Shown here: in pieces, positions 2,311 to 15,983 of the stretch
How positions within the stretch are numbered: the first letter of the stretch is position 1
Layout of the letters: the number at the start of each line of letters is the position of its first letter
Assembly: GCA_026686805.1 (NCBI GenBank)
Contig: GCA_026686805.1_3949.2
DNA length: 22,359 bases
DNA from: a phage
Reading direction: 5' to 3' (one strand)
Translations under genes and position numbers: made by a program
Notes under the pieces: generated by a model
Seen by the model: the letters and a program-made list of their open reading frames with translations, nothing else
The model's database searches: none
Told to the model about the DNA's origin: nothing

Positions 2311-3420
2311 TTAGATTTCACGTTTACGTTGAGAGATGAGTTCACCAGCAGTGCCAACGATGACATGCAAAGCTTCAGTCTTACCGTCCCATGCTTTCAG
2401 CACTTTACGTTGATTATCAACGATTGCTGCAACTTCATAACGAGAGGAACGCATCTTCATATCGTTGTAATCAGTTGGAACAGATACAACATCTCGTGGA
2501 TGGACACGAACCTTCAGGATTGTATCACCTGAGAAGCAACGAACATAATCCCAAGCACCAACATGAAGACCTTGAGAGCAAGTTACGTTACGGTTATTAT
2601 CAACCATCCAACGTGGCATTTCTACAATGTTACCCAAATCATTAGGCACTTTGTAGGTGTGAGAGTCAACCAGCTTGCCTTCACGAGTAGATACTTTCTT
2701 CCAACCAATGATGTAGCCTTCTTCATCAATTTCAACATCAAGGTGAGATACAAAGCCCCAAAGTTGTTCTACAGAGTCTTTAGATGGGTTTTCCATCAGT
2801 TTTTCGAAGAACATCACAAGGCGTTCAAAACCTTTATCTCCAGTCTTCATCATGTGAAGAATACGGTCAACCAGAGTAGAACGCATCTCAACAGCACCGT
2901 AGAATAGCTTGTCACCTTTGATTGTGATAGCACCCTGAGTGAAGTTTTCGATAGACTTACGAATATTCATCAGTTCAAAGGCTTTCTTGAACTCACCTTT
3001 CACAACATGAACTACAATCTCTTGATAGTTCGGATGAGTAGACTCAACAATTTCAGATTCTGAACCGTAAGTCATAATTACAGAGTCACCAGTAATCATG
3101 TACTCAATTTTGTCATCTTTCTGCATAGCTTCATGCAGTTTATTTACTGGAGCTTTCTGTACAGCGTCTTTAACGACCTTTTCAACTTGTTTGCCAGATT
3201 TCTTTTTAAAAGTTTTAGCAACTTGTTTCAAAGTCTTCGTAGCTGGTGTAGAAGTCGCCTTCTTATTACCTTTTAAGGTTGCTTCATGACGCTCTACAGC
3301 ACGACCAACTGAACGGGTTGAAGTATTAAATTTCTGTGCAATAGCTGTTTTAGTCAGCTTACCCTCTTTAACCAGTTTGTAAATTTCTGCGTCAATCTGT
3401 GCTTTAGTTTTAGTAGTCAT
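2311..3420 (-). CDS. rIIB: rIIB protein (369 aa)
   Basis: ATG start confirmed. C-terminal half matches the T4 rIIB pattern as I recall it (...VRVHPRDVVSVPTDYNDMKMR..., ...VTCSQGLHV...). Lies directly downstream of the rIIA-like gene in the same orientation, as in T4. Confidence 0.85.
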   Translation of the reverse strand: MTTKTKAQIDAEIYKLVKEGKLTKTAIAQKFNTSTRSVGRAVERHEATLKGNKKATSTPATKTLKQVAKTFKKKSGKQVEKVVKDAVQKAPVNKLHEAMQKDDKIEYMITGDSVIMTYGSESEIVESTHPNYQEIVVHVVKGEFKKAFELMNIRKSIENFTQGAITIKGDKLFYGAVEMRSTLVDRILHMMKTGDKGFERLVMFFEKLMENPSKDSVEQLWGFVSHLDVEIDEEGYIIGWKKVSTREGKLVDSHTYKVPNDLGNIVEMPRWMVDNNRNVTCSQGLHVGAWDYVRCFSGDTILKVRVHPRDVVSVPTDYNDMKMRSSRYEVAAIVDNQRKVLKAWDGKTEALHVIVGTAGELISQRKREI

Positions 3421-3468
3421 CTTATTACTCTCTCTCTCTTGTTAGTTAATAAATCATTTTGTAAGGCT

Positions 3469-3498
3469 ATTCTAAGGGGCTTTGAAGCCCCTTGTCAA
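3469..3498 (-). promoter_or_regulatory. Candidate sigma70-like promoter (TTGACA-N18-TAGAAT) in the rIIA-rIIB intergenic region
   Basis: Minus strand: gtTTGACAaggggcttcaaagccccTTAGAATagcc; -35 at 3498..3493, -10 at 3474..3469, predicted start about 40 nt upstream of the rIIB ATG. The spacer is itself a GC hairpin (separate feature). Confidence 0.35.
3475..3492 (-). other. GC-rich hairpin AGGGGC-UUCAAA-GCCCCU with no U-tract (RNA structural element between rIIA and rIIB)
   Basis: Perfect 6-bp inverted repeat aggggc/gcccct with a 6-nt loop. Not followed by a U-run on either strand, so not called a terminator. Confidence 0.45.
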
Positions 3499-3503
3499 AC
3501 ACT

Positions 3504-5870
3504 TTAATCGTAAACTGTTGTACCTTCTGGAACACATTTTACATCAAAGCCTAAGAACTTACTCACTTCGATGGGTGACACTTTATTCCAATCTAAATGA
3601 GAAAGCAAGAAGTTTTCTTGTTTTCTTTTTGAAAGGTATTTTGTCACCTTAATGACCATACGGTCACCAGCTTTCTTAATTTTCTTGTAAAGCTTTGTAT
3701 CATTGTCAAGACAGTCTTTCAAAGTTTTCAATACACTAATAGTATAAGTGTATGCAAATGGTGCAGCAACGTATTGGATTTTACCGAACATAGCCTCTAC
3801 AGCCTCTTCATTACCTTCTAGGAAGATAGTTTTGCTAGTATCTCGTGAATAGCAATAGCCACGAGAAATCTTCCTGTTATTGAACGTAAAGTTTCTGGCA
3901 ATAATCCAACTGCTTGTAAGGTCGAGGACACCATTCATATAGATACGTGTCATATATCTGTTATGATTAATCCAATGAACATCAGTTAAGCTGTCGTTCA
4001 AGAGTTTCTCATCTACTTCAATCCAGTCTTCTGGTATCTTTTTCCAATTTGCTTTTCGGAAAACATAGACTGTCTTCCCTATAACATTAGCAACTGACTT
4101 GGCTACATCTTCTGGAGATGAGCAAAAACATTCACCATCAACTGTGTCACCAACTGCCTTAATGTAAAGCTGAGGTTCTTCAATTGTATCAAAGTCCTCT
4201 GAAACCTCTTTATAGGAAGCTACACCTTCTGCTGGAACAGCTTTCCAGAGTTTTACAACACCTCTTACAGCTTCTTTACGCTGATAGTGATGTTCCTTAT
4301 CAGACATCTTAACAATCTTTAACAAGCTTTTATCAAGTTTGTGTAGATTGATTAAATCATCTAACTCTTTTTCAGTCGAGAATACAAACACAATACCATT
4401 ATATCTGTGAAACAGACTTGACTCACTGGCGTAGTCTCGACATGCACCACGCAGAATCTGATTGCGGCCTACAGTCTTCTCAGTACCATTTTTATTGCGA
4501 CGGTCATTAATCACGAACAAAAACTGTTCAATTTGGCTTTTACGCATTGCGCCAAAGATATTGAACATACTTGCCTCTTGAGTGTAGGAAAGTGCTGTTG
4601 CACGAATCTTACTCTCTAAAGAGTTGAACTTGACATAAGCAACTGGGTTATAAAGATAATCTACTTTAGGGATATTGTTCCCGTTCCTATCAACCTTAAT
4701 ATTGCCTTTACCGTCACGTTCATAAATGACTGAGCCGTCTTCTGCGTAGATAATTCCACGACGAATGTTTAACAATTCTTCTTCCAGAGAATCAAGCTTA
4801 ACGCCTCCCCACTCTAGCTTTGGACACACAGCATTAAACATCTCTCGTGAGTTCAAACGTAGCTCAGCATAAGCCTGTGCAGCATCCATGAGTGTAGGTT
4901 GACTATTAACTTTCTTGATAACATCCTTTGTAATTGCTTCAGTTATCTTTTTGGTAGCCTCGATGATAACATTTTTTGTCGTGTCATTCATCTGCAATGC
5001 TTCACGAGAAGCTGCAATAGCAACTGAACCAATAGGCATGTAGATGTTTACAAGGTCTACGCTCCTACGGAAAAATTCTGGCAATACTTTGAAGAAGTCA
5101 TCACCAAGTAATGCTTCCATATTAACAGGGTAGGCAATGTTACCCATCACCACATTAAACTCTGTCCTGTTACCACTAGAACGCCAGCTTTGCTTATGAA
5201 TCATGGCATCATAAACACCTTCTTCACGGGCAATGACGTTCATATCTGCTAATACATCGTCGTACTCAATATTACTTTCTGGTTTTACAGTGAAGTATGA
5301 GTACACATTCCCAGCTTCTTCAAAGAACTTTGAGATACGGTGGTCAGCAACTGCCACACGTACAGCTAAACCATTAGGTTCTTTTGTTGGGTTAGTTGTC
5401 AGCTTAGTTACTTGAGGGATACCATTCTCAAGATAAACAGAGTACTTATTAACAACACCGTCAACATAGCTAGATACTGTGAATGACTGAGCAATTGCAA
5501 ATGGTGACTTTGAGCCGATACCCATTGCACCAATGTAGTCATTAGAGTCATTCTTCGTAGAAGCTCCATAGTTTAGGTACAAACTCATAACTTTATCATG
5601 AGTCAATCCAGTTCCAAAATCACGAACTTCAAAGTAAGGCTCAAAACGAGTAGGTAAATGCACATGGAACGGGATGTTCTCTTTTCCAGCTTCTTTCTGA
5701 GCATCTACTGCGTTACATGACAGTTCACGAATCACTGCCCTTTCTTTAAAGGTATACACACCAGAACTCAAAAGGCTGAACATCTCAGGTGTCATTGTAA
5801 TCTGTGCTTGAGACGTCTCTAAAGAAGTTGAACTCTTAATCACTTCTGCGTGGTCATTTACCATGCGCAT
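3504..5870 (-). CDS. rIIA: rIIA protein (788 aa) with N-terminal GHKL/Bergerat-fold ATPase-like N-box
   Basis: ATG start confirmed, with AGAGGAAAG Shine-Dalgarno. ELSCNAVDA near residue 50 fits the GHKL N-box (E-x-x-x-N-A-x-D-A). Size and position immediately upstream of rIIB fit rIIA. Confidence 0.8.
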   Translation of the reverse strand: MRMVNDHAEVIKSSTSLETSQAQITMTPEMFSLLSSGVYTFKERAVIRELSCNAVDAQKEAGKENIPFHVHLPTRFEPYFEVRDFGTGLTHDKVMSLYLNYGASTKNDSNDYIGAMGIGSKSPFAIAQSFTVSSYVDGVVNKYSVYLENGIPQVTKLTTNPTKEPNGLAVRVAVADHRISKFFEEAGNVYSYFTVKPESNIEYDDVLADMNVIAREEGVYDAMIHKQSWRSSGNRTEFNVVMGNIAYPVNMEALLGDDFFKVLPEFFRRSVDLVNIYMPIGSVAIAASREALQMNDTTKNVIIEATKKITEAITKDVIKKVNSQPTLMDAAQAYAELRLNSREMFNAVCPKLEWGGVKLDSLEEELLNIRRGIIYAEDGSVIYERDGKGNIKVDRNGNNIPKVDYLYNPVAYVKFNSLESKIRATALSYTQEASMFNIFGAMRKSQIEQFLFVINDRRNKNGTEKTVGRNQILRGACRDYASESSLFHRYNGIVFVFSTEKELDDLINLHKLDKSLLKIVKMSDKEHHYQRKEAVRGVVKLWKAVPAEGVASYKEVSEDFDTIEEPQLYIKAVGDTVDGECFCSSPEDVAKSVANVIGKTVYVFRKANWKKIPEDWIEVDEKLLNDSLTDVHWINHNRYMTRIYMNGVLDLTSSWIIARNFTFNNRKISRGYCYSRDTSKTIFLEGNEEAVEAMFGKIQYVAAPFAYTYTISVLKTLKDCLDNDTKLYKKIKKAGDRMVIKVTKYLSKRKQENFLLSHLDWNKVSPIEVSKFLGFDVKCVPEGTTVYD

Positions 5871-5898
5871 AATACTTTCCTCTTAGTTTACTGTTAAA

Positions 5899-6075
5899 TT
5901 ACTTATTAAACATTTTACCAGAACCACCACACATAGGGCAACAACCTGCTCTTGTATACCCTTCTCCGTTACAGTAGTCACACTTCTTGTGTTCTGCAAA
6001 GTACTTACAAAGAAGATAAACAAGGACTGCTACACTACCAAGTGACAGTAAAATTTCTACCCAATATGCTTGCAT
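5899..6075 (-). CDS. Small membrane protein with C-terminal DnaJ-type zinc-finger repeats (58 aa); not in ORF track
   Basis: Hand-translated: MQAYWVEILLSLGSVAVLVYLLCKYFAEHKKCDYCNGEGYTRAGCCPMCGGSGKMFNK. One hydrophobic helix, then two CxxCxGxG units (CDYCNGEG, CPMCGGSG). GAGGTGAG Shine-Dalgarno 4-11 nt upstream of the ATG. Overlaps the 3' end of the 6057..6392 ORF by 19 nt in another frame. Confidence 0.45.
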   Translation of the reverse strand: MQAYWVEILLSLGSVAVLVYLLCKYFAEHKKCDYCNGEGYTRAGCCPMCGGSGKMFNK

Positions 6076-6392
6076 GACTCACCTCTCATGTTTTTGTAAA
6101 GGATAAAGCTTCTGTCATGGACGATACTTGTAGATACTGCAAAGTTACTTTCAAGCATCTGTTTGTTTGGATTGTAGAAGCTTTCTTTAAACTCGTCAAG
6201 CGCAAATTGGTGATTGTCTGGAAGACCTTTTACACAAACCTTTATTGTGATTGCTGCTGCAATCTTGCCAGTCAGTTCTTCTTTAGCTGCTACTAAAATT
6301 TTGTTAAGGAACTTTTTACCATCTTCAGGTTTCTTAATGTTCTCCCAACGCTCTTCTAAGACAATGTTGATGTTCATCTCTTTGATTTTCAT
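6057..6392 (-). CDS. Hypothetical protein (111 aa)
   Basis: ATG start confirmed. First gene after the 6404..6431 terminator and candidate promoter. No recognisable motif. Confidence 0.5.
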   Translation of the reverse strand: MKIKEMNINIVLEERWENIKKPEDGKKFLNKILVAAKEELTGKIAAAITIKVCVKGLPDNHQFALDEFKESFYNPNKQMLESNFAVSTSIVHDRSFILYKNMRGESCKHIG

Positions 6393-6403
6393 AATCTTCT
6401 CCA

Positions 6404-6431
6404 GAAATTAAAAAGGCTCCCGTAGGAGCCT
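6404..6431 (-). terminator. Intrinsic terminator hairpin (minus RNA AGGCUCC-UACG-GGAGCCU followed by UUUUUAAUUUC)
   Basis: Plus 6414-6431 is aggctcc-cgta-ggagcct, the same stem as the 483-500 hairpin with a different tetraloop. U-tract follows on the minus transcript. Immediately downstream of the NAMPT-like gene. Confidence 0.6.
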
Positions 6432-6434
6432 CTT

Positions 6435-6462
6435 ATCATATACTTTTAAAGCTGCTTGTCAA
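6435..6462 (-). promoter_or_regulatory. Candidate sigma70-like promoter (TTGACA-N16-TATGAT) overlapping the 3' end of the NAMPT-like gene
   Basis: Minus strand: aatatTGACAagcagctttaaaagtaTATGATaagaggctcc; -35 at 6462..6457, -10 at 6440..6435. The transcript would begin inside the terminator hairpin. Confidence 0.3.
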
Positions 6463-8227
6463 TATTATTTCGAATATCGCCAAGAGTTGTGTAGCCGAAC
6501 TGCTCAGAGTCGCTAAAGACTAAACGTAAAGCACAAGCTGGATGCTCAAGTGCATCTGCAAAACTCTGGAATCCATAGCCATCTACAGCTTTCAGATTCT
6601 CACCATCCCACATAGGGGCTACACCACCAAAAGCAGACTTCTTAACACCACTATCTGTTTTAGGGTCTTTTGCAAGCATAATCTCTTTACCACCAATGCT
6701 TGCAAGAGTTGCTTTGACAGCAAATGCAAAGGTGTCACGAGTCATGTACTGGTAAGTGTAGGAACCTACACCAAACACTACGTTAGAGCTTGCAAAACCC
6801 ATTTCATACAAACGCTTAAGGATTTCGTTTGCACGTTCCAACGTGATAGAGTCACCATAGATAAGGCCAATGTGCTCATCCAGTACCTTAAAACCTTTAG
6901 AGTTGATAGTCCCTCCAAAGATGTTGTACAGTGTCTTAATAGCTCCATCAATCTCAGCTACAGGGCGTGTTACAACGTTTGCAGAACCAACCATATAAGC
7001 GTTCTTCAACATCACTGTATCAGCAACTTCAAAGTCTTCTCTGTCAACAACCATTTCATAGCCTTCTGACAGTAGCCATCCAGCAATACCATAGTTGATG
7101 TTTTCAAGCTTCATGTTCAGAACAGCATTCAACATTGTGTCGCTGGCTTCCAGCTTGCTAAGGTGCTCATAATAAGCCTTTTTAGCACACTCTAAGTGGA
7201 TTGCTTTATAACCTGTGACAATATGTACAGGGTCTCCAGAGTCAGGACGAATTACCAGTTTACCGTCACGTTCCATAATCTCTTTGCGAAGTGCTGGTAA
7301 GATTTCTGACACAGTTCTCCAGAAGTTATAAGTGTCTGAAACAACACTTGCAATACCAGTTGGGTAAGTTTCTGTTAAGAAACGACGGAAGGTTTGTAAC
7401 TCACCTTTAAAGCGTCTTTCTTCTTCAATCAACTCATTACCACCTTCCCAAGCAATGTTTGCACACATTACAGAGTGCTCAGTGGCTGGTACAGAACTAC
7501 CAATATCAGAAATTGGGTAAGACTGTCCATAGATGCGTTTAGCCGTGTATACAGCAGGGAAACTATCAGTTCCTTTAAAGCTGGTTAAGTGACCTACAGC
7601 ATTAAATGCGTCATCGGTAAAGCCGGACATACCACGCATAGCAAAGTCATGGCACTGATAAGGTAAATGTAAGTCATTGTCGCAAGTAAGGTCAGCCCAC
7701 TTCTTACAGATACGTTTGTAGTGCAATGCAATAGTTGCAATGGTACAAGCCTTCCAAATCTCAGCAGAGAAAGCATCTTCCAGATACCCCGCTACCCAAT
7801 GGAAACCTGAAACAGTGTTCTGGAAGACAATTATTGGTACACGCATAGGAACAACTGTGCCTTCTTCTACAGCGTATACTTCAACTGGCAGATAACCTAA
7901 GTCGTGAAGTGCTTCCCAATGCTCTCGACCAATAGCATCTTTACCCAGAACACCGTTCATGACTTCTAATATTTCGTCAATTGCTTCTTTTTTGTCACGT
8001 TCAAAGAAGGTGGCGTTCCAGTGGTCTATCAGGTAATCTTTAACAAAACGTTGAATACCAAAAGCAACTACACCATCAATTGCTAAGGGGCTGTTAAACC
8101 ATTTGTCACTACGTGGTGTCAGGTTGAACATCAAGTACTCTGTTGCGCTAGGATACTGGTAGATGTGACCAGATTTGTAAGCATCTGCGTTTAAACCTGC
8201 TGGTACTGCATAAAGTGATTTAGTCAT
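6446..8227 (-). CDS. Nicotinamide phosphoribosyltransferase-family protein (NAMPT-like; candidate NARP1 Namat), 593 aa
   Basis: ATG start confirmed. N-terminal ...NADAYKSGHIYQYPSATEY...FNLTPR tracks the NAMPT N-terminal signature as I recall it from human NAMPT ([27 protein letters not shown]). Same orientation as, and 45 nt downstream of, the PRPP-synthetase-like gene. Confidence 0.8.
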   Translation of the reverse strand: MTKSLYAVPAGLNADAYKSGHIYQYPSATEYLMFNLTPRSDKWFNSPLAIDGVVAFGIQRFVKDYLIDHWNATFFERDKKEAIDEILEVMNGVLGKDAIGREHWEALHDLGYLPVEVYAVEEGTVVPMRVPIIVFQNTVSGFHWVAGYLEDAFSAEIWKACTIATIALHYKRICKKWADLTCDNDLHLPYQCHDFAMRGMSGFTDDAFNAVGHLTSFKGTDSFPAVYTAKRIYGQSYPISDIGSSVPATEHSVMCANIAWEGGNELIEEERRFKGELQTFRRFLTETYPTGIASVVSDTYNFWRTVSEILPALRKEIMERDGKLVIRPDSGDPVHIVTGYKAIHLECAKKAYYEHLSKLEASDTMLNAVLNMKLENINYGIAGWLLSEGYEMVVDREDFEVADTVMLKNAYMVGSANVVTRPVAEIDGAIKTLYNIFGGTINSKGFKVLDEHIGLIYGDSITLERANEILKRLYEMGFASSNVVFGVGSYTYQYMTRDTFAFAVKATLASIGGKEIMLAKDPKTDSGVKKSAFGGVAPMWDGENLKAVDGYGFQSFADALEHPACALRLVFSDSEQFGYTTLGDIRNNIDKQL

Positions 8228-8247
8228 CTTTTAATCTCTCTCAAAAT

Positions 8248-8263
8248 GGGGCTTTTAAGCCCC
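8248..8263 (-). other. GC-rich hairpin GGGGC-UUAAAA-GCCCC between the PRPS-like and NAMPT-like genes; no clean U-tract
   Basis: Perfect 5-bp inverted repeat ggggc/gcccc with a 6-nt loop. Downstream minus RNA is AUUUUGAGAGAG (the Shine-Dalgarno of the NAMPT-like gene). Same design as the rIIA/rIIB hairpin. Confidence 0.45.
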
Positions 8264-8272
8264 TATAAACTT

Positions 8273-9154
8273 TCAATCAAGGTTTGCTACAGTAACTTGA
8301 CTGTAATGTGTTAAGCCACGGTCTTTAGCTTCGCCTAAAGAGTTTGTAGTGTAAATATGGTCGATACCATTGTCAAGAAGGTTTTCAACATCTTTAGAGA
8401 AGATACCATGTGTTACATAAAGTTCCACACGTTTTGCACCTGCTTCACGAAGATGTTTCGCTGCTTCTATGAAGGTTCGACCACCATCACAGATATCATC
8501 CAGAATCATAACGGTTTTATCTGTCAAATCAACATCATCAAGGATTCGCATACCAGTAATTTCACCAGTCTTAAGGTTACGCACCTTAGACATTGTGATA
8601 TATGGTTTATCCACCTCTTTAGCGGTCTCTGCAACCTTCTTAGCAGCACCTGCATCTGGGGCTACTAAGTAATCAACCAGTGGGTCATTTGCATAGTGGA
8701 CTGCAATCTCCTTTTGAGGAATACTCTGGAAGCAGTTAAACAGGTTATCTGGAACGCAACTGTGAGGGTCAACTGCACAGACTGCACCAAATCCCATTGC
8801 ATTTACCTGTTTAGCAAAAACCTTTAAAGCTGCTGCGTCGCCTTTAAACATGTGACGGTCATATCGTGCATTTGGTAAGTAGTAAAAGATGACAGTCTTT
8901 AAAGCATAATCATGAGGAATTAAATCATCAATTGCTTCTTTAGCAAGTGCCACAGCAAACAAAGTGTCCTTATCATAACCTTTTACAATCATAATCACAT
9001 TGTTGATGGATGATGCTGCATAAGCAGTAAAATCAACAAACTCTGGCGAAAAGTGTCCACCAATCTCACCAGAAGGGAATTGGACGATGTTAAACTCTTC
9101 TTCATGAGTCCCTTTAGTTGGTGAATGAACTGTAACACGGATAGATGTTTTCAT
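8273..9154 (-). CDS. Ribose-phosphate pyrophosphokinase-family protein (PRPP synthetase-like; candidate NARP1 Adps), about 293 aa
   Basis: Track ORF starts at a TTG (9169); ATG at 9154 (MKTSIRVTVH) has a GAGAGAGAAAACT Shine-Dalgarno. PRPS-type motifs present: VDPHS, VAPDAGAAKKV and the PRPP-binding loop ILDDICDGGRT. Confidence 0.8.
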   Translation of the reverse strand: MKTSIRVTVHSPTKGTHEEEFNIVQFPSGEIGGHFSPEFVDFTAYAASSINNVIMIVKGYDKDTLFAVALAKEAIDDLIPHDYALKTVIFYYLPNARYDRHMFKGDAAALKVFAKQVNAMGFGAVCAVDPHSCVPDNLFNCFQSIPQKEIAVHYANDPLVDYLVAPDAGAAKKVAETAKEVDKPYITMSKVRNLKTGEITGMRILDDVDLTDKTVMILDDICDGGRTFIEAAKHLREAGAKRVELYVTHGIFSKDVENLLDNGIDHIYTTNSLGEAKDRGLTHYSQVTVANLD

Positions 9155-9165
9155 AGTTTTCTCTC

Positions 9166-9444
9166 TCAATCAAAAGTTACGTTTGTTACTGCCATTGCAG
9201 ATTTGCATTTTGCAGGGTCTACAACGTGATAAAGTACACTACAGTTACCTGTGCTGTCTGGTACAGGCTTTACCCATTGCTGCTTTATAGTTGGCTCTCC
9301 TAAGTCTTTGTAAGAGCCATCTGTAAAGTTGTTTACCATCTCAAGTGCAATTGGTTCTGGAACATGACCACGTATCATGTACATCTCACAACCATTACCA
9401 CCTTCACTGACTAATGGTAAAATTTCCCACTTTTCTTTAGCCAT
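9166..9444 (-). CDS. Hypothetical protein (92 aa)
   Basis: ATG start confirmed. ATGGCTAA-type 8-nt overlap with the upstream gene; ends 11 nt before the PRPS-like ATG. No recognisable motif. Confidence 0.5.
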   Translation of the reverse strand: MAKEKWEILPLVSEGGNGCEMYMIRGHVPEPIALEMVNNFTDGSYKDLGEPTIKQQWVKPVPDSTGNCSVLYHVVDPAKCKSAMAVTNVTFD

Positions 9445-10621: not shown

Positions 10622-10638
10622 AGAACTTATGAAGTTCT
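10622..10638. other. Perfect 7-bp inverted repeat agaactt-atg-aagttct in the nrdG-downstream intergenic region
   Basis: Read directly from the sequence. Only a weak U-rich run follows on the minus transcript, so function (attenuator, processing site or binding site) is unknown. Confidence 0.4.
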
Positions 10639-14614: not shown

Positions 14615-15687
14615 TAAGGAACCTCTAAAAATCCACTATTCAAATCATCTACAACAGTATTCAACAGGTACGCACCGTTCTGTTGCTCCTGATTAGCATT
14701 CTGCTCTTTATCAATTTCCATCTTCTTAATCATGTACTTCAAAGGTGGTTCTTTAGGAGCTACAAAATCTCTGGGAATGCCAAACATATCATACAGTGGG
14801 GCAGCATTATAGTAAACCCACTCATGAAGAAGCTTTGTATTTAAGCCAACTACAGCACGTCCTTCGGAGAAGATATAATACGACCATTTCTCTTCACTTT
14901 CAACTACTTCATCTAAGATTACTTTAATCTCTGGAAGAATTTGTTGAAAAGCTTTCTGCCACTCATCATCTCTTAAAGTTTCTTTTAAAACTTCAATATC
15001 AATTTTAGTGTGAAGGATTTCATCAAGCATAATTTTCTGGACAGCTTGAGCAATACCCTGAAATTTATCTTGAGCATCAAGTGCAAAAGTACATGCAAAG
15101 GATGCCATAAAAGATATACCTTCAAGTGCAGTCACTGCAAATAGACCTTTTAGAATCACTTTATGGAAGTGTAAAGGGTCTTTGTCCAGAAGTGAATCAC
15201 GGACATAACTCAGCCGATAGTTTATACCTTCATCCAGTAATTCTTCAAGAACACGATTCACAGTTTTTAATCGGTCTTGCACAGCAACATTCTGGTTAAT
15301 CTCATCTAAGATTGTTTCAGGGTTTTTAATACATTGTCTTACAATCTCTGAGTAAGTAAGAGCATGTAGGTTTTCAATCTCAGACTGCTTCATAATTGCA
15401 GTTGCATAGATGTCATCAGAGATAAAGGGTGCAAAGGCAAATGCCAAGCTCTTAGCAACTTGAGTGTCTGCTTCCCATTGCCACTTAAGAATCTCAAGCA
15501 TTACACCTGACATTGATGCTGGGACACTCTCAAAATCAAGACGTGATTGTTCAAAAGGGAACTCATCTTCTGACCAATCTTGTGCTTTTTGTTGTTTATA
15601 AAGCTCAAAGATTTTTGGGTAGTGCTTATTAAGTGAGTCAAAAGTTTTTCTCTCACCACCTAAAAAGATTGGGTGCTGGTTAATCAT
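14614..15687 (-). CDS. nrdB: Ribonucleotide reductase class Ia small (beta) subunit, 357 aa from ATG
   Basis: Track ORF begins at a TTG (15747); ATG at 15687 (MINQHPIFLGG...) forms an ATGA overlap with the upstream small gene and has AAGGAG upstream. Di-iron ligand and tyrosyl-radical motifs present: EIENLHALTY (E-x-x-H...Y) and ALEGISFMASFA...DEILH. Confidence 0.85.
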   Translation of the reverse strand: MINQHPIFLGGERKTFDSLNKHYPKIFELYKQQKAQDWSEDEFPFEQSRLDFESVPASMSGVMLEILKWQWEADTQVAKSLAFAFAPFISDDIYATAIMKQSEIENLHALTYSEIVRQCIKNPETILDEINQNVAVQDRLKTVNRVLEELLDEGINYRLSYVRDSLLDKDPLHFHKVILKGLFAVTALEGISFMASFACTFALDAQDKFQGIAQAVQKIMLDEILHTKIDIEVLKETLRDDEWQKAFQQILPEIKVILDEVVESEEKWSYYIFSEGRAVVGLNTKLLHEWVYYNAAPLYDMFGIPRDFVAPKEPPLKYMIKKMEIDKEQNANQEQQNGAYLLNTVVDDLNSGFLEVP

Positions 15688-15963: not shown

Positions 15964-15983
15964 GAGGGTCTTTTACGACCCTC
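15964..15983 (-). other. Perfect 7-bp hairpin gagggtc-ttttac-gaccctc just downstream of the nrdA stop
   Basis: Read directly from the sequence. No strong U-tract follows on the minus RNA, so this is a structural or processing element rather than a terminator. Confidence 0.45.

Follow-up and report, generated by a model that had tools for sequence, protein, structure and literature searches.

PeSL-like hairpin cassettes proposed at the rIIA/rIIB and PRPS/NAMPT junctions of a Felixounavirus

The window studied here is a 22,359-nucleotide stretch of phage DNA (GenBank assembly GCA_026686805.1, contig GCA_026686805.1_3949.2), which shares ~96% identity across 6.9 kb with numerous genomes of Escherichia and Salmonella Felixounavirus phages (the FelixO1-like group, Ounavirinae) and, judged by this sequence identity, is itself a Felixounavirus. 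On its minus strand, two short hairpins with GGGGC/GCCCC arms (G4C hairpins) lie between consecutive genes, one between rIIA and rIIB (site 1) and the other between the genes for a PRPS-like and a NAMPT-like enzyme (site 2). We read both as dispersed copies of a cassette in which a G4C/GC4 stem-loop is set against a sigma-70 -35 hexamer. This is the design of the promoter-early stem-loop (PeSL) cassettes of the T4-type phages RB49/phi1, PST/T4 and nt-1/KVP40 (Arbiol et al. 2010, PMC2839356; Comeau et al. 2014, PMC4122927). At site 1 the cassette would combine a promoter for re-initiation with attenuation of read-through, and at site 2 it would be a weak attenuator; the probability of this statement as a whole is about 0.5. 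Its parts differ in strength: from the sequence comparisons a PeSL-type architecture is very probable and promoter activity at site 1 is likely, while attenuation as the role of the hairpin is an even call. On this reading the elements belong to the PeSL type of cassette and do not represent a novel sort of processing signal; both sites are already annotated, as predictions, in at least one GenBank record.

The two junctions and their conservation

The list of open reading frames (ORFs) places all genes around both hairpins on the minus strand. At site 1, 83 nt separate the rIIA stop codon (TAA, 3504..3506) from the rIIB ATG at 3420, and at site 2, 45 nt separate the PRPS stop codon (TGA, 8273..8275) from the NAMPT ATG at 8227. 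Hairpin 1 (3475..3492, minus strand) reads A-GGGGCU-UCAA-AGCCCC-U and folds with -11.6 kcal/mol; hairpin 2 (8248..8263, minus strand) reads GGGGCU-UAAA-AGCCCC and folds with -10.0 kcal/mol. The initial annotation had described two near-identical hairpins, each between the upstream stop codon and the Shine-Dalgarno (SD) sequence of the next gene, and the letters, positions and gene coordinates bear this out; stems of 6-7 bp with tetraloops describe them better than the 5-bp stems with 6-nt loops given there. The motif GGGGC-N6-GCCCC occurs twice in the window (3476-3491 and 8248-8263) against 0.01 expected, a count that none of 100 shuffles reached. Folded as minus-strand RNA, the intergenic regions are more stable than dinucleotide shuffles, with z = -2.4 at site 1 and -3.0 at site 2. 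Both hairpins begin 9-11 nt past the stop codon, a terminator-like placement, and have AU-rich flanks. The lack of a U-tract, part of the original description, holds at site 1, where the tail UUAGAAUA has three U in eight positions, and only partly at site 2, where the tail AUUUUGAG has four in eight; the short tail AUUUU directly 3' of hairpin 2 (8243..8247, minus strand) is ACUUU in Suspvirus and Mooglevirus. A bidirectional terminator was rejected, the plus-strand tails TATAAACTTT and TGTCAAACAC having no U-tract.

Counting the flanking A and U, hairpin 1 is 18 nt long and coincides exactly with the spacer of a predicted sigma-70 promoter, TTGACA-N18-TAGAAT, which matches the consensus at 11 of 12 positions in a promoter scan. 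The -35 hexamer lies at 3493..3498 and the -10 hexamer at 3469..3474 (both minus strand); from the usual sigma-70 spacing, transcription of rIIB would start at the A at 3462, 7 nt past the -10, upstream of an SD-like (GA)6 tract (3428..3439, minus strand). Promoter matches of at least 11/12 number three in the window, all of them on the coding strand, against 0.67 expected, and the GenBank record of a relative, the complete genome of phage AYO145A (NC_028825.1), annotates this position as 'promoter'.

Conservation, by which the initial annotation proposed to judge the hairpins, is clear at this junction. It was followed through 29 close IMG/VR loci and several GenBank phages of the genera Felixounavirus, Suspvirus and Mooglevirus, whose rIIB is 77-99% identical. 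The -35 hexamer is present in 29/29 of the IMG/VR loci, as TTGACA or, once, TTGACT, and the GGGGC/GCCCC arms are unbroken in 27 of them. In all three genera the two hexamers and the stem arms persist without indels, the spacer being N17 in Suspvirus and Mooglevirus and the -10 varying at position 3 alone (TAGAAT/TAAAAT). The loop (UUCAAA, UUUGAA, UGAAAA, UGCAAA) diverges, as do the 5' untranslated region (5'UTR) and the stretch from the -10 to the SD tract. Felix O1 itself carries the site-1 element; the published terminator table of that phage does not include a rIIA/rIIB hairpin (PMC3185647).

At site 2, the hairpin is abutted by TTTATA (8264..8269, minus strand), a degenerate -35-like hexamer at the position that elsewhere holds TTGACAa, cTTTACAa or TTTACA. 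Neither the scan nor reading of the sequence found an acceptable -10 at 16-18 nt from TTTATA, from TTGAAA or from a loop-borne -35, and a promoter at site 2 was rejected on this account. An SD-like GAGAGAG tract (8236..8242, minus strand) serves NAMPT. NC_028825.1 annotates the site as a WebGeSTer 'terminator' (84904-84924). Hairpin 2 is found in every Felixounavirus, Suspvirus and Mooglevirus locus without an inserted gene, so that conservation extends to this junction as well; its loops vary, and one variant pair of loci (UGGGC..GACCCA) retains a shifted 4-bp stem. RNAalifold recovered only 4 pairs from the multi-genus alignment of site 2, with one compensatory C-G to U-A change; MAFFT had set the longer Hafnia stems out of register there, and per-sequence folds were relied on instead.

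The exception to this conservation is an HNH endonuclease gene, which replaces the entire PRPS-NAMPT spacer together with the hairpin in 4/28 loci examined and in 11/60 sampled GenBank hits. Felix O1 itself lacks hairpin 2 and has the HNH gene, as ORF128, in its place. The gene is free-standing, ~490 nt long, and takes the place of everything between the stop codon and the (GA)n SD tract (window 8228-8272; loci L017, L019, L028 and L034; L045 1207-1723).

The two genes 3' of the G4C hairpins, rIIB and NAMPT, share an unusual (GA)n tract instead of a GGAG-type SD. For rIIB its length is (GA)6 in the window, (GA)4 in most relatives and (GA)5 in one, a microsatellite length polymorphism situated 8 nt from the start codon.

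Profile searches identify the genes concerned. In PHROGs, rIIA (ORF 3504..5870) matches phrog_612 (E = 2e-189) and rIIB matches phrog_609 (E = 5e-89); PRPS (ORF 8273..9169) carries Pfam PF00156 and PF14572, NAMPT carries PF04095 and PF18127, and the Pfam and PHROGs searches likewise bear out nrdA and an nrdG-type activase of the radical-SAM kind. The phrog_609 profile ('RIIB', 1055 positions) is matched by rIIA at positions 31-299 and by rIIB at positions 755-1048 (window 2314-5870), and therefore seems to have been built from fused rIIA-rIIB proteins.

A dispersed family and two hairpin classes

The two hairpins belong to a family that is repeated through the genome. Ten GGGGC-N3..20-GCCCC hairpins, with loops of 4 to 19 nt, are present in the complete genome of AYO145A, where 0.035 would be expected; nine lie outside annotated genes, and eight are directly preceded by TTGACA, TTTACA or TTTATA. 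One copy stands at rIIA/rIIB behind TTGACAa and one at PRPS/NAMPT behind TTTATA. A tail-fibre junction has a copy behind TTTACA with the tail UUUUAAG, annotated as a terminator, and no hexamer is obvious beside two copies, those at 14825 and 23115. The remaining five occupy ~88-nt modules between early ORFans, where a promoter scan finds cTTTACAa or cTTTACAc before the hairpin and a -10 (TAAAGT, TATGAT) in its loop, giving TTTACA-N17-TAAAGT or a related promoter. The Felix O1 paper records these early-region modules as 57-bp direct repeats only (PMC3185647); in that phage, ORFs 16, 20, 21 and 22, which lie among the cassette modules, peaked at 5 min by reverse-transcription PCR (RT-PCR; PMC3185647, Table 3).

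In the early region of AYO145A (L007 9224-14565), two alternating intergenic modules of ~65-90 nt flank nearly every early ORFan. Type A reads TTTACA-a-GGGGCTTA-(loop with the -10 TAAAGT)-TAAGCCCC-AGATAAAGAGC, and type B reads TTGACA-N17-TAAATT followed by GGGGAGGG-AAUGA-CCUUCCCC.

The initial annotation's view that the G4C hairpins form a second family, distinct from the hairpins with U-tracts, is upheld across Felixounavirus, Suspvirus, Mooglevirus and Kolesnikvirus by a survey of eleven sequences, namely the window, AYO145A and nine loci of relatives, in which all hairpins with a 6-bp stem, a tetraloop and four or more GC pairs were enumerated. Class 1 has stems of the GGCUCC, GGCUGC, AGCCUC, GGUCUC or GGACUC type and UUCG or UACG loops, and is always followed by U4-7. 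Class 2 has GGGGCU/AGCCCC stems, replaced by GGGCUG/CAGCCC in Kolesnikvirus and by GGGUCU/AGACCC in a Hafnia phage, with GNRA or A/U-rich loops and a U run that is absent or short (tails UUAGAAUA, A(U/C)UUUGAG, AUCUUAAAC or CUUUUAAAAG). The window contains eight canonical U-tract terminators, by the criterion of at least 5 T in the 8 positions after the stem; five of them have UUCG or UACG tetraloops. Every class-2 hairpin in the window lies inside an operon bounded by class-1 terminators. An Rfam scan of the whole window at the gathering threshold gave 0 matches.

Two further hairpins had been suggested as possible relatives. That after nrdA (15964..15983, minus strand) reads GAGGGUC-GUAAAA-GACCCUC with the tail UAAAAAUA and folds with -12.6 kcal/mol (region z = -3.3). 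It is a GC hairpin without a U-tract within an operon, its fold is real and its position at the junction is conserved: Mooglevirus has the same sequence, the Hafnia phage GGGGUCU-GAAA-AGACCCC, and Kolesnikvirus a different sequence followed by AACUUUUUU. It belongs functionally with class 2, and the suggestion stands. The AU-rich hairpin after nrdG (10622..10638, minus strand; -4.2 kcal/mol) was dropped as a feature: the region has z = +0.46, and an equally good fold was reached by 132 of 200 shuffles.

The structures themselves show signs of selection at the RNA level. In Suspvirus, Mooglevirus, Kolesnikvirus and the Hafnia phage, the GNRA loops (GAAA or GCAA) occur, at both junctions, on the sense strand only, none being reversed; stems of the Hafnia phage include U.G pairs, which are A.C mismatches on the antisense strand; and Kolesnikvirus and the Hafnia phage keep differently sequenced hairpins at the same junctions (rIIA/rIIB and nrdA). 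Felixounavirus phages that share more than 95% identity (loci L002-L037) differ by loop flips, the loop of one being the exact reverse complement of the other's, and loop identity is therefore unconstrained in that genus. The flips exchange TTCAAA and TTTGAA at site 1 (window 3481-3486; central CA vs TG), and TTAAAA and TTTTAA or TTGAAA and TTTCAA at site 2 (window 8253-8258). They are interleaved with haplotypes of flanking single-nucleotide polymorphisms and look like recurrent palindrome-mediated inversion, template switching or recombination between two alleles.

Hafnia phage SarahDanielle and an IMG/VR relative have a repeated module of their own, UUUUGUAAAGGGGUUUG(C/A)AAAGACCCC, which contains a U.G pair and a loop of the GNRA type (L039 1866-2898 and 4672-4726; L042 ~855-902; L038 1331-2302). 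In SarahDanielle its copies follow PRPS, two inserted small ORFs, NAMPT and nrdA, accompanied by a promoter-like TTGCAA/TTGAAA (in the loop)-N17-TAATAT/TAAGAT. At the PRPS/NAMPT junction of the Hafnia phage and of L038, two extra ORFs are bracketed by near-identical hairpin modules.

Promoter elements also meet canonical terminators elsewhere in the window. At the 3' end of NAMPT (6462-6411), TTGACA-N16-TATGAT (11/12) abuts the terminator hairpin AAGAGGCUCC-UACG-GGAGCCUUUU, within which a transcript initiated there would begin; a relative annotates a promoter and a terminator at this place. It is another composite promoter/terminator and corresponds to those PeSLs in which the stem-loop follows the -10. 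At 11976-11936, a TTGACA (11976-11971) runs into a 16-bp terminator hairpin (11971-11936) through the same junction as at site 1, TTGACAAGG; it has no -10 at a usable distance and resembles a further half cassette. Behind rIIB (2297-2210), the strong terminator AAAAGGCUGC-UUCG-GCGGCCUUUUUUU is followed by an extended -10 (TGTATAAT) within 25 nt; in a relative the two carry terminator and promoter annotations.

Proposed function and alternative explanations

In the model that we favour, RNA polymerase arriving from rIIA would transcribe the site-1 hairpin and pause, or be partly released, at the -10 region, and host RNA polymerase would re-initiate ~7 nt past TAGAAT. The new rIIB mRNA would lack the hairpin and hence escape attenuation. 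The outcome would be an rIIB expression partly independent of rIIA, from a promoter shielded against occlusion by read-through. At site 2, the half-cassette, made of the TTTATA remnant, the hairpin and AUUUU and devoid of a -10, may bring about no more than weak intrinsic termination or attenuation between PRPS and NAMPT, within an operon bounded by strong UUCG/U-tract terminators. End-point RT-PCR of Felix O1 placed the rIIB peak at 10 min and that of rIIA at 25 min (PMC3185647, Table 3), a timing that agrees weakly with re-initiation. FelixO1-like phages are widely used in Salmonella and E. coli typing and biocontrol, and PeSL-type cassettes in them would provide a map of internal promoters and attenuators, extend to another subfamily a cassette type known only from T4-like phages, and point to the cassettes as places where genes are likely to be gained or lost.

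Several observations weigh against this model. Termination by E. coli RNA polymerase normally requires a canonical U-tract, and the terminator scan, with its U-tract criterion, reports neither hairpin yet detects the canonical terminators of the window. The separation of class 2 from the phage's own clean UUCG/U-tract terminators could itself signal a function other than termination. In Kolesnikvirus, the rIIA/rIIB hairpin is present without a recognisable promoter, so that the role of the hairpin would be independent of the promoter. An HNH gene stands in place of hairpin 2 in Felix O1 and roughly 15-25% of relatives; hairpin 2 is therefore dispensable and its contribution small. Termination in the RB49 lacZ reporter is inseparable from other effects on the mRNA (PMC2839356), and no transcriptome, transcription-start or 3'-end data for Felixounavirus or Ounavirinae were found in the literature. 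To the initial annotation the hairpins did not look like terminators. The canonical U-tract is indeed missing, but the stem-loop of RB49 PeSL211/210, which is the nearest analogue tested by experiment and has no U-tract in its genomic context, cut downstream lacZ as much as rrnB T1, and the PeSL promoters are very active (PMC2839356, section 14), so this exclusion is not established.

The main rival lets RNA polymerase pass. The hairpins would then be RNA-decay barriers or processing-associated structures that block 3'-to-5' exonucleases after a downstream cleavage, or protect the new 5' end after an RNase E cut in the AU-rich flank, and would give rIIA and rIIB, or PRPS and NAMPT, different half-lives within one operon. 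Intercistronic hairpins that stabilise mRNA are established in E. coli, for example the REP elements at malE-malF in the malEFG operon. A barrier would fit the absent canonical U-tract, the AU-rich flanks, a class kept apart from the phage's U-tract terminators across genera and the Kolesnikvirus hairpins that have neither promoter nor U-tract. It would also fit the location of three GC hairpins inside operons with canonical terminator borders, directly after long enzyme or rII genes, and the RNase protection proposed by the initial annotation remains a live rival in this form. It would leave unexplained the genome-wide joining of hairpins to -35 hexamers and the fall of the RB49 reporter to the rrnB T1 level, unlike the effect of a pure barrier (PMC2839356), and no mapped RNA ends were found. 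We consider it possible but doubtful. RNase III processing sites need ~20 bp or more of double-stranded RNA; stems of 6-7 bp, with no longer helix in minimum-free-energy folds, are too short, and that share of the earlier processing hypothesis was rejected. The same applies to translational coupling, also proposed there: the stop-to-start gaps are 83 and 45 nt, and the hairpins leave the SD tracts unsequestered in the folds.

The remaining alternatives assign the hairpins to other partners or to none. It is unlikely that the G4C/GNRA hairpins are a dedicated RNA signal, read by a phage or host factor and common to Ounavirinae and the RB49 group, that works for example through hairpin-dependent termination independent of a U-tract, through anti-termination or through control of RNA stability; if true, this signal would be a second, tunable layer of intra-operon control in two unrelated myovirus lineages. 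Recognition by an RNA-binding regulator, as in boxB-like antitermination or in translational or stability control, would agree with the short GC stem, U-A closing pair and GAAA/GCAA loop of the relatives, which resemble lambda boxB, and with the recurrence of identical hairpins at several junctions per genome. It would also bear on the passage of transcription through the numerous terminators, which the authors of the Felix O1 study leave as unknown (PMC3185647, section 2.5). Since no boxA-like element was found upstream of either hairpin on the coding strand, the boxA/nut-like version was rejected; the window loops UCAA and UAAA drift freely and vary among close relatives, the copies per operon are too many for nut-type sites, and no candidate protein was identified, which leaves a regulator of this kind quite improbable. 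At the DNA level, the palindrome GGGGCT-N4-AGCCCC could be the operator of a dimeric phage or host protein, regulating the rIIB promoter or acting as a roadblock. Invariant arms around a variable centre within three genera, loop flips in Felixounavirus as if the strand were irrelevant, and the position of the site-1 palindrome inside a promoter are what such an operator would predict, but sense-only GNRA loops and G.U pairs outside Felixounavirus, loop lengths of 4 to 19 nt incompatible with a fixed half-site spacing, and the unrelated-arm hairpins kept at the same junction in other lineages make it very improbable. Equally far from likely is that the hairpins persist as selfish or recombinational repeats, hot spots of cassette exchange with little regulatory effect at the two junctions. 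Site 2 is an indel hot spot where an HNH gene replaces the hairpin in some phages, repeated hairpin modules lie on both sides of the extra ORFs in the Hafnia phage and L038, and PeSLs have been proposed as mediators of modular shuffling (PMC2839356, PMC4122927). Against this, the HNH insertion deletes the hairpin and has no hairpin copies at its borders, and site 1 is invariant and free of indels between conserved genes in three genera, a constraint like that on a promoter.

Comparison with known systems

The hairpins share with canonical intrinsic terminators a GC-rich stem 9-13 nt after the stop codon, upstream of the next SD, and at site 2 a U4 tail; they fall short of the U-tract criterion, and their stem and loop type is systematically unlike that of the U-tract family across genera. 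With REP-type hairpins they have in common a GC stem without a U-tract within an operon, directly after the upstream cistron. REP-type hairpins are not fused to promoter hexamers, and the closest tested analogue, in RB49, lowered downstream expression. The likeness to lambda boxB, seen in the relatives, lies in a short GC stem with a purine-rich GNRA-like loop (GGGGCU-GAAA-AGCCCC); the differences are a tetraloop in place of a pentaloop, a missing boxA, a loop that is unconserved in the genus of the window, and many copies per operon.

The PeSL cassettes are the closest match. Both systems have a near-consensus sigma-70 promoter, a stable polyG/polyC stem-loop mostly between -35 and -10, and an SD and ATG behind it, and both are multi-copy, intergenic, concentrated among early ORFans and accompanied by half copies. 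PeSLs are repeated among ORFans and implicated in indels, and 'half' PeSLs that have a -35 and a stem-loop and lack the -10 have been described (PMC2839356, section 14; PMC4122927). Of the two sites in the window, site 2 shows indels and site 1 none. Read from NC_005066.1, RB49 PeSL211/210 is TTGACA-GGGGATCACGTATCCCC-TATACT, with a G4..C4 spacer hairpin that has no U-tract in its genomic context; six further RB49 PeSLs share this layout. Site 1, TTGACA-aGGGGCTTCAAAGCCCCt-TAGAAT, aligns with it element for element, with a spacer of 18 nt in the window and 17 nt in RB49, and its hairpin-in-promoter layout is that of RB49 PeSL187/186, 191/190, 206/205, 210/209 and 211/210. By the test of a -35 and -10 about 17 nt apart, site 1 fits and site 2 does not. 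Stand-alone hairpins are present in RB49 too: one, GGGGGGC-GUUAA-GCCCC-UUUUAAUC, resembles site 2, and another, GGGGGC-GAAA-GCCCCC-AAUAUGG, lies between td and nrdA.

The differences set bounds to this likeness, which is architectural and not a demonstrated homology: the stem is GGGGCU/AGCCCC in the window and GGGGAUC/GAUCCCC in RB49, and the host lineages are Ounavirinae and Straboviridae, respectively. Site 1 has the SD-like (GA)n tract and ATG of a PeSL, but only 5 nt (AGTGT) between the stop codon and the -35, and its 5'UTR of ~42 nt is longer than in RB49. Site 2 has no -10. Both sites lie between conserved core genes instead of ORFans, a location that is the rarer case in RB49 (PMC2839356, section 15). 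In the PeSL literature searched, no paper mentioning FelixO1-like phages was found. By this element-wise comparison, site 1 appears architecturally identical to a tested PeSL, and site 2 would correspond to its promoter-less half copy.

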